This document shows, piece after piece, positions 47,376-51,620 of a DNA stretch of 64,000 nucleotides. The DNA comes from Candidatus Multivoradales bacterium (GTDB taxonomy: Bacteria; Acidobacteriota; Thermoanaerobaculia; Multivoradales; JAHEKO01), in contig CBDCXM010000009.1 of NCBI GenBank assembly GCA_965223855.1, positions 1,510,206 through 1,574,205 of the forward strand, written 5' to 3'. How positions within the stretch are numbered: position 1 is the first letter of the stretch; every line of letters begins with the position of its first letter. A model generated the notes under the pieces. That model was not told where the DNA came from, searched no databases, and saw nothing but the letters and a program-made list of their open reading frames with translations. A program made the position numbers and the translations under genes.

Positions 47376-48246
47376 GCTCGAGGTCTGCGACCGGATGGAG
47401 AAGAAGCGCCGAAGGATGCGAACGGCAATCCTCTGCCAGTCAGGCTAAAGACGATCGTCAGAGCGGATTCTTGGTCTCGTTCACTTGGTGATGTGTGCGC
47501 GTTGCCGACCAGATCCCGGGACGTTCAGAGATCCGTCGTGACGCAGTTTGAAGAACAGCCAGCCGACGCGAACGAACAGAGACGGAATCGTCCTTAAGAT
47601 TTTTTTCGATGAATGTGACCGACTCGAGCCTGCGGGTCGATGGGTGGCTGGGTCGTCACGTTGGCCGGGCGTCGGGGGGGCGTTCCAGAAGCCCGGCCAC
47701 TCTAACTCGCGGGCCGTTTCTCGATCGCCCCATCCACCGTCTGGCCCCCATCGGAGCGATTTCGCGTTCTCTCCAACATGAGCCGCCGGAGAAGATGAGT
47801 CGAAGCGTTGCGCTATGCTGAGAGGCAAGCACATAAATCTTCGATCCGCACCGGCAGCCACCCGACAGCAACTCTGCAAGGAGTTCCGCATGACCGATCC
47901 CGAACCCATCGAAGACGTCGAGTACCTCTCGAAACTGCATGTCGTGTCCCGTGAGGCTGAGGAGGCAGGTCGTGAACGAAGCTCGCTTCTCATTCGTCAC
48001 CTTTCGCCGCTCGCCATCTCGTCGGTCAGACCGACCAAGCGGTGTCGTGGATGGCCTCTCCATCCGACCCGTCCTATGCTCGTCGACGCCGCGGTCGCCG
48101 CAGCGTGTCAAGCCCCTCAGACCGAAGACCCGTCCTTCGTCGAGTCCAAGCCCCCGAAGAAGAGTCCTAGGACTCTTTCGTACTCGCGAGCCTTTCACCG
48201 GCCCGATCACGCCCCAACAGCCCGGAACGGGCAAGGAGACCAACCC

Positions 48247-48519
48247 ATGGCATTCCCCACCTCAGTCAACAGTCAGATCACCGATGCGGTCACCCAGGCC
48301 AACCTCAAGGTGCTCGGGGACGCCCCCGCGGTGGCGATCGGCAACCTCTATCAGGCGACCGCCCAGGCGCTGAGCAACGCCGCCCACAACGCGACCATGG
48401 CGCAGCAGCAGACCAACATCACCGCTCAGGCCGCCACCACCCAGGGTGTCGCGACGTTGCTGGCGCTCGACACCGCAGCCACCAGCGTCGCCGTCGCCGA
48501 GGAGGTGGAGTCCGGATGA
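48247..48519 (+). CDS. RebB-family (R-body / killing-trait) protein
   Basis: 90 aa. 'VNSQITDAVTQANLKVLGDAPAVAIGNLYQATAQALSNAAHNATMAQQQTNITAQAATTQGVATLLALDTAA' matches the RebB pattern. AAGGAGA RBS. An in-frame upstream ATG at 47890, also with an AAGGAG RBS, would add a 119-aa Pro/Arg/Ser-rich extension. Confidence 0.75.
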   Translation: MAFPTSVNSQITDAVTQANLKVLGDAPAVAIGNLYQATAQALSNAAHNATMAQQQTNITAQAATTQGVATLLALDTAATSVAVAEEVESG

Positions 48520-48836
48520 GCGGCAGGGGCTCGACCTCGGTCAACGATCAGATCGTCGACGCGGTTCGCGAGACCAACGCCGTCAACATCGGTACCGCGG
48601 AGGCCGGTTCGAAGGCGCTGCTCGACATCGTGATGGCGCAGACCGTCGGTATGTCGATGCACAATGCCGTCACCGCGCAGCACAACGACCGCATGGTTGC
48701 CGAGGCGGCTGTGGCCGCCACCTGCGCCCGCCTGCTGGCGGCGCACCGGCTCCCGCAACCGGTATCGCCAAAGCGTGGCGGTCCGACGACGAACGAGAAG
48801 CCGGCCAAAGGGAAGTCGCCGACGCCCGGCAAGTAG
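48516..48836 (+). CDS. RebB-family paralog
   Basis: 'TSVNDQIVDAVRETNAVNIGTAEAGSKALLDIVMAQTVGMSMHNAVTAQHNDRMVAEAAVAA' parallels RebB. ATGA overlap with the upstream gene. Confidence 0.65.
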   Translation: MSGRGSTSVNDQIVDAVRETNAVNIGTAEAGSKALLDIVMAQTVGMSMHNAVTAQHNDRMVAEAAVAATCARLLAAHRLPQPVSPKRGGPTTNEKPAKGKSPTPGK

Positions 48837-48854
48837 GCCGGGAAGGACAGAACG

Positions 48855-49223
48855 ATGGCAGAGAACCACAGCTCAGCAACCTCGAGTCCGGAGCTCGACG
48901 ACCTCATCGCGGAGGTCACGCAGGCCGATGCTGCCGGCAAGGCCTACCACGCCGTAGCCCAGGCGACGGCGATGGCCGTTCAGGACGCCGTGGACCACTT
49001 GCGAAACGTCAGCACCGTGGCAGGGACCGCGATCGGCGTAGCGCTGGCCGAGTTTCTGGAGACCGGCGAGCAGAACGCGTTCGACACTGCGGTCGAGGCC
49101 GCTACCAGTACGGTCAGGGCCGCGACGAACACCTTCTCGGAGGTCGGCACCGCAGCGGCAGCGGTGCTCAACGGCTTTCCCTCGGGAGACGAGGGGAGTG
49201 GCCCGACGGACTCTCAGGCCTAG
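48855..49223 (+). CDS. Divergent RebB-like helical paralog
   Basis: 'AYHAVAQATAMAVQDAVDHLRNVSTVAGTAIGVALAEF' has the same Ala/Gln-rich architecture. Located 18 nt after the previous gene. Confidence 0.45.
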   Translation: MAENHSSATSSPELDDLIAEVTQADAAGKAYHAVAQATAMAVQDAVDHLRNVSTVAGTAIGVALAEFLETGEQNAFDTAVEAATSTVRAATNTFSEVGTAAAAVLNGFPSGDEGSGPTDSQA

Positions 49224-49238
49224 GGAAGAAGGTCCGAG

Positions 49239-50405
49239 ATGACCGTTCAGATCGCAGGCCACCTCATCACCTCCCCCGAGCAGTTGTCCGAACCCGCCCG
49301 TGCCGTCGTCGGCCTGATCGTCGACGGCGAGGACTGGCTCCGCAGCGCTATCGGGGATGCCGGTCACCACTACCACTTCCCGAGCGAAGGGGCACTCGTC
49401 AGCGGAGTCCAGAACGGGCTCCACGGCAGCGAGCTTCTGCTGGTCCCGGGCCTCGGCCTCCAGGTGAGCGCCGAGAGGCTGTTTCAGGTGCCGCCGGAAC
49501 TTCTGAGAGCGGTCGAAGAGGCGGCCGCCGCCGGCAGCTACGAGCCGACGGTGACGACGCGCAGACTGCTGGCTCAGTCGAAGCTGTGGACCGCCGATGA
49601 ACTGGCGGGTGGCCAGATCGCCCTCACGCAATTCGGCCTTCGCGACGACCCGCTCTTCCAATCTCTCACCCTCGGGGACGCGATCGTTTTGTTCGATCTG
49701 TTCGACTCGACGTACGACTCGACGAACCACTCGAAGGCCGCGGCCTCGTTCGCGGCGGACCGGGCGGTGACCCCTCGAGAGTTTGCGGACTACTACCGCT
49801 TCTACGTGACCGTCGCAGAGGCTTCCCGAAGCGAGGGTGGCGCAGACGAGAGAGTCGCGACGGCGCTCGAGCTGCTGCGCCCCGTCGTCTGGCCGCGACT
49901 GCGGTGCCCGCACGTCGCCTACGATCCGTCGCCTGAGACGGTCGGAGCTCTGGTGCGCTCCTGGCTGGCGGAAGGCGAGCCCGCGGTCGGCTTCGCCACC
50001 GCAAGTCGCGCAGTCGCCGAACTCGCTGAGGTGGCGGGCGGGACGATCTCGGTCGCCGAGGACGCCGAGGCCGCGGCCGAAACGTTCATCGAAACCTCGA
50101 CCGCCGTCCTGTCCTCCCAAGACCCGCGGGAGGGCGAGCTGTCCCAGGACGGTGCCGTCCAGCTCTTCAGCGTCGAGGCGCCGGACGGTGCCCGGGTCCT
50201 GCTCGTCCACGATCGGACTCACGGCGCGCTGGCGGTCCACTCGCTCGAGATGGCCCCCGGCATGACCGAGTCGTCCGGCACGACTACCCGCAAGACCCCG
50301 AAGAAGGCGGCGAAGAAGGCCGCCAGGAAGACGGCAAAGAAGGCGGCGAAGAAGGCGAAGCCAGGCATGGCGAAGAAGAGCGCCGGGGCGACTGCAAAAC
50401 AGTAG
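49239..50405 (+). CDS. Hypothetical protein with histone-H1-like Lys/Ala-rich C-terminal tail, reb-locus associated
   Basis: 388 aa. C-terminal 'TRKTPKKAAKKAARKTAKKAAKKAKPGMAKKSAGATAKQ'. Located 15 nt after the third reb gene. Confidence 0.5.
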   Translation: MTVQIAGHLITSPEQLSEPARAVVGLIVDGEDWLRSAIGDAGHHYHFPSEGALVSGVQNGLHGSELLLVPGLGLQVSAERLFQVPPELLRAVEEAAAAGSYEPTVTTRRLLAQSKLWTADELAGGQIALTQFGLRDDPLFQSLTLGDAIVLFDLFDSTYDSTNHSKAAASFAADRAVTPREFADYYRFYVTVAEASRSEGGADERVATALELLRPVVWPRLRCPHVAYDPSPETVGALVRSWLAEGEPAVGFATASRAVAELAEVAGGTISVAEDAEAAAETFIETSTAVLSSQDPREGELSQDGAVQLFSVEAPDGARVLLVHDRTHGALAVHSLEMAPGMTESSGTTTRKTPKKAAKKAARKTAKKAAKKAKPGMAKKSAGATAKQ

Positions 50406-50486
50406 GGTCCAGCGACTCCTGTGCCATAGTCGCGCGAAGTCGATGGCTTCCCCGGCACAGGCACTCACCGTTCCGCAGGCGATGGA

Positions 50487-51620
50487 GTGAACCCTCTTTC
50501 GACCGGCTGCGGGTACCCCGCGGCTCAGCGTCCAGCGGTCCGCCTGATCTGCCTGGGGCTGGTCCTCGGCCTGCTCGCGCCGCTCCCGGCGCCGGCGCGC
50601 TCGAAGACGCGGCCGATCAATGCCGAGACGGCGGAAGAGGTGGCTCTCTTCTTCGCCCTGGAGTCGATGCGGCGACTCCGCGTGCCGCTGGTGCTGCGAT
50701 TGGTCTTTCCGGACGGTTCGAGTCGCGAGGAGGAGCTCGAGAGGATCCGCCAGAGCCCGCCGAGGCTCAACGCCAGCAACGTCGTCTATCCCTTCGGCGA
50801 CAAGAACGCCCTGTCGATGGTGCTTCACGAGGGCCGGGGTGTCCTGTCGTGCCGCTACTCGTTGTCCGAGAAGCGGGGCACGGTCGGCGGCTGGGGCCTG
50901 ACCGGGCCGGAGATGGCCGCCGTCCTCAACGAGCATTCGACGGCTCGCGAGCGGGGCGGCGCCGAGTGGTCCTACGACCCGATTCGCGACTCCGTCGGGC
51001 TGCAGCGCGACTTCAGCTCGCTGCCGGCCGATGACGACAAGCTCTATCGCGAACTCAACCAGTTCATGAAGACCGGCAACTGGTGGTTCAACGAGCGCTT
51101 CGTCAAGCGCCTCGTGCCCCTGGTCGAGGCCCGCCAGCCGCCCGCGTCAGCCAGCGCCGAAGAGGAGGGGTTCGGCGCCACTCTCGTCCTGCGCCACTTC
51201 TCGCAGCAGAACCACGAGATGGGGGCACACTTCGCCGGAAGGTACCTGCGGGGTTGGGATCGGAAGTGGGGGCATCGGGCGCCGCGCGTGGTCTCCGATC
51301 GCGCGCTCGACATCGACCAGTTGATGTACATCTGGGTGCACTTCGAGGGGGCAGGAACCGGCGAGCCTCTCGCCGAGGCGGCGGTCTACGCCAAGGTCCG
51401 GATCGTACGGCCCGACGGCAGCCTGGCGGTCGACGAGATCACGCTCCCGCTGTGGCGCGGCGAAGCGCCGCCCGGCGGCCATCTGCAGATCGGCATGAAC
51501 AACGTCTCGTTCTCGCTCGACGCCGACGAACCCAGAGGCGACTGGACGATCGAAGCGCGAGTGTGCGAAGACGGGCGCGACCGCTGTGTCGACCTGCGCC
51601 ACGACTTCGTCGTGCGCTAG
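50487..51620 (+). CDS. Secreted hypothetical protein
   Basis: 377 aa. Signal peptide region. No known motif. Confidence 0.45.
   Translation: MNPLSTGCGYPAAQRPAVRLICLGLVLGLLAPLPAPARSKTRPINAETAEEVALFFALESMRRLRVPLVLRLVFPDGSSREEELERIRQSPPRLNASNVVYPFGDKNALSMVLHEGRGVLSCRYSLSEKRGTVGGWGLTGPEMAAVLNEHSTARERGGAEWSYDPIRDSVGLQRDFSSLPADDDKLYRELNQFMKTGNWWFNERFVKRLVPLVEARQPPASASAEEEGFGATLVLRHFSQQNHEMGAHFAGRYLRGWDRKWGHRAPRVVSDRALDIDQLMYIWVHFEGAGTGEPLAEAAVYAKVRIVRPDGSLAVDEITLPLWRGEAPPGGHLQIGMNNVSFSLDADEPRGDWTIEARVCEDGRDRCVDLRHDFVVR

Follow-up and report, generated by a model that had tools for sequence, protein, structure and literature searches.

Does a row of small, alanine-rich genes in an acidobacterial genome encode an R-body, the rolled ribbon formed by proteins of the RebB family, and which of the genes that follow on the same strand belong to the system? 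The question is raised by positions 47,376 to 51,620 of a 64-kb stretch of DNA from Candidatus Multivoradales bacterium (Acidobacteriota; contig CBDCXM010000009.1, forward-strand positions 1,510,206 to 1,574,205), the whole of which is referred to here as the window. An original prediction, made from the letters alone, had described this region as an R-body-like (reb) locus of five open reading frames (ORFs). The call of a reb locus was found to be correct, as ORF1 and ORF2 pass the Pfam RebB model and ORF3 and ORF4 are conserved partners of reb genes. The reading favoured here, given a probability of approximately 75%, is that positions 48247-50405 form one tightly coupled reb operon of the type termed Group 1, which would make an R-body-like polymer with the products of ORF3 and ORF4 as assembly or attachment factors, and that ORF5 is unrelated to it.

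All five ORFs had been placed on the plus strand, and they were recovered there at the same coordinates in a six-frame ORF list. Their protein sequences, with identical starts, are also present in a public protein collection as singletons from one NCBI/ENA contig of 3.226 Mb. ORF1 (48247..48519, 90 aa) and ORF2 (48516..48836, 106 aa) overlap by 4 nt (ATGA), ORF3 (48855..49223, 122 aa) begins after a further gap of 18 nt, and ORF4 (49239..50405, 388 aa) after one of 15 nt, with GGAG-type ribosome-binding sites identified ahead of each of these four genes. All four are intact, with a high GC content at third codon positions (GC3) and with no frameshifts or premature stops, in a locus of approximately 67% GC, the same as the remainder of the window. 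The gaps of under 20 nt that had been predicted for the last two genes held for ORF3 to ORF4 and not for ORF5 (50487..51620, 377 aa), the earliest possible start of which (50487) lies 81 nt beyond the ORF4 stop (50405).

Group 1 reb clusters were defined by a synteny pattern with the partner families HP1.1 (~360 aa), HP1.2 (~110-120 aa), HP1.3 (~170 aa, a distant Reb) and HP1.4 (60-80 aa, also a distant Reb), these families being confined to Reb-bearing taxa (Raymann et al. 2013, PMC3583457). Most of the Group 1 partner proteins have since been described as 'secondary Reb' groups, with HP1.1 lacking homology to Reb (Dorr et al. 2026, PMC13430693). For comparison with the window, 78 reb loci were obtained from species-representative genomes via ORF1, along with two from contig look-ups, and a further 80 metagenome loci were fetched with an alignment of the ORF3 family; these loci were picked by similarity to ORF1 or ORF3 and are thus not an unbiased sample.

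Of the proteins of the locus, ORF1 gave the clearest assignment. Against Pfam RebB ('Killing trait', PF11747), for which the gathering threshold is 24 bits, it scored 103.1 bits (E 8.3e-30, model positions 1-68 of 68), and it was found to match more than 4000 RebB clusters, the best of these at 75-88% identity. It carries the signature of a primary Reb, MAFP-TSVNSQITD-AVTQANLKVLGD-AP...LYQ...MAQQQ (prolines flanking QITD, KxxxD, a tyrosine and QQQ), and contains no cysteine, no tryptophan, one phenylalanine and one tyrosine. This agrees with the published signature of two prolines around QITD, KxxxD/E, a conserved tyrosine, QQQ and few cysteines or aromatic residues (Dorr et al. 2026, PMC13430693). 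ORF1 is the only canonical RebB copy in the locus. The small proteins had been described as rich in alanine and glutamine, and their composition was indeed found to be Ala/Thr/Gln-rich, ORF1 having 24% Ala and 10% Gln. A profile search of PDB sequences with RebB gave no relatives, and an NCBIfam scan of ORF1-ORF5 gave no match.

ORF2 is a divergent, HP1.3-like protein with a RebB domain. It scored 54.4 bits against Pfam RebB (E 1.3e-14, model positions 1-63 of 68), is 41% identical to ORF1 and retains only QIVD and NAV of the primary Reb motifs, as expected for a 'secondary' Reb. Its closest matches (E to 1e-22) were long Reb-like genes situated directly upstream of HP1.2 in other loci. With these HP1.3-position genes it has 34-46% identity, a conserved Cys-Ala-Arg (CAR) motif and a proline-rich linker in common, yet it is truncated, lacking their distal 70-100 residues (106 aa versus about 170-290) and ending in a short Pro/Lys-rich C-terminal extension.

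Three tandem RebB paralogs had been predicted. ORF1 and ORF2 proved to be such (103 and 54 bits versus the cutoff of 24), and ORF3 did not, as no match to Pfam RebB was obtained for it even at E<=1. ORF3 homologs were identified in reb loci with phmmer (E to 7e-26); it is 27-49% identical to 27 members of the HP1.2 family, one of the 'secondary Reb' groups, and the profile of this family matches it at E 9e-38. Comparison of the HP1.2 family with RebB, profile to profile, gave an hhalign E of 1e-4 (probability 57%, 72 columns), and sub-threshold Pfam RebB matches were found in 12 of 28 HP1.2 members (best 5e-4). Most HP1.2 members keep a Reb-like N-terminal VNxQ(I/V)xD start, which the ORF3 of the window has lost. 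A metagenome scan with the HP1.2 alignment revealed no close relative, with identity of 57% at most. On sequence grounds, ORF3 can be categorized as an HP1.2-type protein that is possibly remotely related to Reb, and not as a member of the RebB family.

The 388-aa product of ORF4 had been taken to be novel, and a word-indexed search of 5.8 billion proteins did return ORF4 alone; when repeated with an alignment of the ORF4 family, it returned 11 distant relatives only. This orphan status was overturned by phmmer on the reb loci, in which 58 ORF4 homologs were found (E to 8e-48), always directly after HP1.2. The apparent absence of relatives was due to the limited sensitivity of the word-indexed search, probably worsened by the low-complexity tail of the protein. 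The profile of the HP1.1 family matches ORF4 at E 1e-103, and ORF4 is 19-34% identical to the family over its full length. It belongs to HP1.1, a reb partner described in 2013 (PMC3583457) and present in 55 of the 80 reb loci fetched first. ORF4 has no Pfam, NCBIfam or PDB relative, and a profile search of PDB sequences with HP1.1 was also empty. An AlphaFold2 (AF2) model built from 12 sequences was poor, with a mean predicted local distance difference test (pLDDT) score of 52.7, and Foldseek against PDB gave nothing below E=3.

Gene order was found to agree with these assignments. In 55 of 80 loci, canonical RebB copies precede one or two genes of the ORF2 type, after which come one of the ORF3 type and one of the ORF4 type. 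With family profiles, HP1.2 and HP1.1 were found to co-occur in 130 of 165 loci; many phyla are represented, Acidobacteriota among them. One of these loci is that of Hydrogenophaga taeniospiralis (L043), cited as a free-living R-body producer (PMC13430693). ORF sizes in the window fit HP1.1, HP1.2 and HP1.3 of Raymann et al.; as in Group 1 clusters, an HP1.1 homolog (ORF4) adjoins the reb genes, and HP1.2 (ORF3) lies directly upstream of it, at a distance of 15 nt. Loci of Xanthomonas, Stenotrophomonas maltophilia and H. taeniospiralis (L021-L043) share with the window the four families RebB, HP1.3-like, HP1.2 and HP1.1, in this order and in the same orientation, their counterparts being up to 34% identical to ORF4 and up to 49% identical to ORF3. 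They differ from it in copy number, canonical RebB being present 3-7 times in these loci and once in the window, and in usually having a short HP1.4, which the window lacks; in addition, HP1.3 of the window is truncated and its HP1.1 bears a polycationic tail.

Within the 64-kb window, the RebB, HP1.2 and HP1.1 profiles match ORF1-ORF4 only, giving two RebB-domain genes. Loci were counted as complete when they contained both HP1.2 and HP1.1 and were separated by 1.5 kb or more from any contig end, and among the 74 such loci six RebB-domain genes were the most frequent number (44 loci), with five in 14, seven in nine, four in three, eight in two, nine in one and two in one. The locus is a reduced version of Group 1, with two Reb-domain genes in place of the usual 4-9. 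The sole other complete locus with two RebB-domain genes, HP1.2 and HP1.1 is that of an Acidobacteriota metagenome-assembled genome (L052, JASJCB010000096.1). It differs from the window in having two canonical Reb genes and no HP1.3-like gene, and it is not a close relative, with a GC content of 54% versus 67% and an HP1.1 that is 28% identical. A weak tblastx similarity between a BamB-like gene near the window locus and one near L052 was judged to be non-informative.

What such an operon would do can be approached from the systems that have been studied. RebB-family subunits form a rolled, detergent-insoluble ribbon, the extension of which upon a trigger harms eukaryotic host or predator cells, while of the minor proteins RebC and RebD steer assembly and RapA associates with the polymer (PMC13430693, PMC5527310, PMC8322103, bioRxiv 10.64898/2026.05.21.725848). 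The experimentally characterised polymer with pH-driven rolling and unrolling is type 51 (PMC13430693; bioRxiv 10.64898/2026.05.21.725848), encoded by rebABCD of Caedibacter taeniospiralis. Its structural subunits are of the RebB family (PF11747), as in the window; unlike the window, this system consists of three RebB-family genes and RebC (which has no known homologs), is plasmid-borne and is without HP1.1 and HP1.2. The Group 2 system of Pseudomonas aeruginosa PA14 (RebP1/P2, RebD, RapA, RcgA, FecI2; PMC8322103) likewise has RebB-family subunits, but its accessory set differs, and it comes with dedicated genes for sigma and transcription factors, none of which lie beside the window locus. 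The features of Group 2, namely an adjacent extracytoplasmic function (ECF) sigma factor, a Crp or other transcription factor and RapA/HP2.x, were not found at the locus, RapA/HP2.x sequences not having been compared directly.

By homology to these systems, the RebB-domain proteins ORF1 and ORF2 would polymerise in the cell into an insoluble rolled ribbon, the R-body. A trigger such as low pH would then unroll the ribbon to a long tube, as in the studied systems, and the unrolled tube could rupture the membranes of a eukaryotic cell that had ingested the bacterium. HP1.2 and HP1.1 would aid assembly or attachment instead of forming the bulk of the structure, in analogy with RebC/RebD and RapA; for binding of an accessory protein to the polymer, the best precedent is RapA of PA14, a non-structural partner that co-purifies. 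A role as assembly or association factors is considered the most likely one for both proteins.

Several points weigh against a functional Group 1 operon of this kind. The window has two RebB-domain genes, one of them canonical, versus 4-9 in 73 of the 74 complete loci, and several tandem canonical Reb paralogs are absent, with one copy versus 2-7 elsewhere. No second short Reb-like ORF that could represent HP1.4 was found in the 64-kb window. No regulator adjoins the operon, the flanking genes (VOC/glyoxalase, DUF2200, Bax1-I, an unannotated 595-aa protein and FG-GAP) having no sigma, helix-turn-helix, regulator or mobile-element domains. R-bodies of A. caulinodans need at least three Reb genes (PMC5527310), and loss of RebA or RebB in C. 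taeniospiralis results in rolls that no longer extend with pH (bioRxiv 10.64898/2026.05.21.725848). Lastly, further reb genes may lie elsewhere in the genome, beyond the 64-kb window. In favour of the operon reading, as summarised in PMC13430693, Goudenege et al. 2013 report that one Vibrio nigripulchritudo reb cluster suffices for R-bodies, a case discussed there among marine gammaproteobacteria carrying Group 1 clusters.

The alternative that survives best, unlikely as it is considered to be, draws on some of the same points: the locus would be a decaying or functionally altered Group 1 remnant, in which a single canonical Reb yields no product, or else a static inclusion or fibre that no longer extends. 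The low number of Reb-domain genes, the missing distal part of ORF2, the loss of the VNxQ(I/V)xD motif from ORF3 and the requirement for multiple Reb paralogs in other systems are all consistent with decay. Against it, frameshifts and premature stops are absent and translational coupling has been kept. ORF1 is also within 75-88% identity of its family, which argues for purifying selection, and L052, an independent Acidobacteriota locus, has the same minimal content of two Reb genes, HP1.2 and HP1.1.

A more ambitious version of the favoured reading, in which the locus is a minimal R-body system, is regarded as quite doubtful. Here a single canonical RebB together with the HP1.3-like protein, HP1.2 and HP1.1 would suffice, and the R-body would be anchored to DNA or another polyanion through the (KKAA)n tail of ORF4. 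The tail (50277..50402, plus strand, residues 347-388) had been described as histone-H1-like, and its basic character was found to be real. It consists of 42 residues, GTTTRKTPKKAAKKAARKTAKKAAKKAKPGMAKKSAGATAKQ, of which 16 are lysine or arginine and none is acidic, with an isoelectric point (pI) of 12 as opposed to 4.6 for the rest of ORF4. Most of it is encoded by a tandem repeat at 50299-50357 (period 12 nt, 4.9 copies, unit CGAAGAAGGCGG; Tandem Repeats Finder), a structure which suggests that the tail arose by recent repeat expansion. Among 59 members of the HP1.1 family, the median number of lysine or arginine residues in a 10-residue tail was 0, and the nearest to ORF4 was a single member (from L007) with 11. 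In a manner comparable to the proposed tether, a histone-H1-like tail on the phasin PhaF tethers polyhydroxyalkanoate granules to the nucleoid.

The original prediction had gone further and proposed a module of five genes, in which ORF4 and ORF5 would be novel accessories to a new reb-like device. ORF5 is co-oriented with the operon and lies directly downstream of it, with no canonical terminator between ORF4 and ORF5, and the word-indexed search had, as described above, failed to reveal an ORF4 homolog. This proposal is nevertheless rated as very improbable. The 58 homologs of ORF4 in reb loci place it in a known family, while the 81-nt gap sets ORF5 apart, and no ORF5 homolog was found at any E-value in 165 reb-related loci. 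When 1.84 billion representative proteins were searched exhaustively with phmmer, 42 relatives of ORF5 were identified, eight of them below 1e-30, and the three nearest (36-46% identity) were found to lie in three different neighbourhoods, none with a reb-related gene. The N-terminus of ORF5, as read from the sequence, resembles a Sec signal peptide. Its AF2 model (pLDDT 88) shows an alpha/beta module resembling the type III secretion system chaperone ExsC, and a generic Ig-like sandwich in which a pair of cysteines is invariant. ORF5 is probably a neighbouring gene for a rare, predicted secreted protein and not a part of the reb system. A reading of the small ORFs as fragments of a single frameshifted gene, a possibility raised in the original prediction, or as chance ORFs in high-GC DNA can be dismissed as next to impossible: only their small size and the overlap of 4 nt speak for it, while ORF1 and ORF2 have their own starts, their own ribosome-binding sites and complete RebB domains that each align from model position 1, ORF3 is matched by a separate family profile (E 9e-38), and dozens of genomes show the same boundaries between these genes.

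Upstream of the operon lies a leader or promoter region (47376..48246) of approximately 870 nt without a convincing gene, in which no ORF shows the high GC3 that characterises the genome. An in-frame upstream extension of ORF1 to 47815 gave no Pfam match and is not present in homologs, which are of 88-90 aa. No Rfam match was obtained for the locus, this region included. No sigma-70 consensus was identified in the region, and promoter and terminator scans of the locus were empty. The promoter of the operon and any regulation are presumed to reside within 47376-48246. This stretch is unusually long and somewhat lower in GC, and it may be a large regulatory region.

Multi-paralog reb operons had been thought to be known from a handful of Proteobacteria, and a module of this type to be uncharacterised in Acidobacteria. 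The first of these statements is outdated: besides the more than 4000 RebB clusters matching ORF1, RebB loci were identified from Alpha-, Beta- and Gammaproteobacteria, Desulfobacterota, Bacteroidota, Verrucomicrobiota, Myxococcota, Planctomycetota, SAR324 and Campylobacterota, as well as from four Acidobacteriota (L052, L058, L064 and L074). The Group 1 type has been known since 2013, and among the 671 taxa with reb listed by Dorr et al. 2026 are multiple Acidobacteriota in which at least three reb genes occur (PMC13430693). Given this breadth across phyla and the number of taxa, the argument from rarity no longer holds. One 6.4-Mb metagenome contig among the loci compared was found to carry a very large reb cluster (L001, 1004-12267), in which eight Pfam RebB genes, an AraC regulator and homologs of HP1.2 and HP1.1 precede an AAA+ ATPase and a protein with a DNase II domain; the latter could be a candidate cargo or toxin.

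Other features of the window were identified apart from the reb locus. A perfect (TC)31 microsatellite at 52386-52447 is unique in the window (24 overlapping 16-mer matches versus 0.02 expected). It takes up the greater part of the 77 nt that separate the Bax1-I gene (51628-52371, minus strand) from the divergently oriented gene for the 595-aa protein (52449-54236, plus strand; no Pfam match), ending 1 nt ahead of the ATG of the latter, and it may act as a slipped-strand switch for phase variation. An 843-aa protein with a caspase (Peptidase_C14) domain and six Sel1 repeats is encoded at 37978-40509 (minus strand), adjoining genes for DoxX, a BamB-like PQQ propeller and an 864-aa Gly-rich PKD/Ig surface protein. 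A purine-catabolism cluster at 21253-29389 includes an allantoicase-OHCU decarboxylase fusion, DUF6986, a xanthine dehydrogenase molybdopterin subunit and a membrane protein with a urate-oxidase N-terminal domain. Fifteen window proteins were looked up exactly, and all were found to be singleton clusters at 90% identity; that every window protein tested is a singleton suggests a poorly sampled lineage. An identical copy of the window protein at 10492-11691 (minus strand) was found on a 12-kb contig of the ENA metagenome assembly ERZ25072999 (ctg254715; L166), the sole trace of the source organism that was detected elsewhere.

With regard to the family as a whole, the gene cluster type has been known since 2013, and the locus is modestly unusual within it in its low number of Reb copies and in the lysine-rich tail of its HP1.1. 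The locus adds one lineage to an already broad distribution and leaves current understanding unchanged. R-bodies are of interest as natural pistons that break membranes and as actuators that can be engineered. Were the minimal system with its tether to prove true, it would provide a minimal parts list for Group 1 R-bodies and a first functional handle on HP1.1. The locus is a convenient, small test case for which of the parts are essential and for what HP1.1 does.

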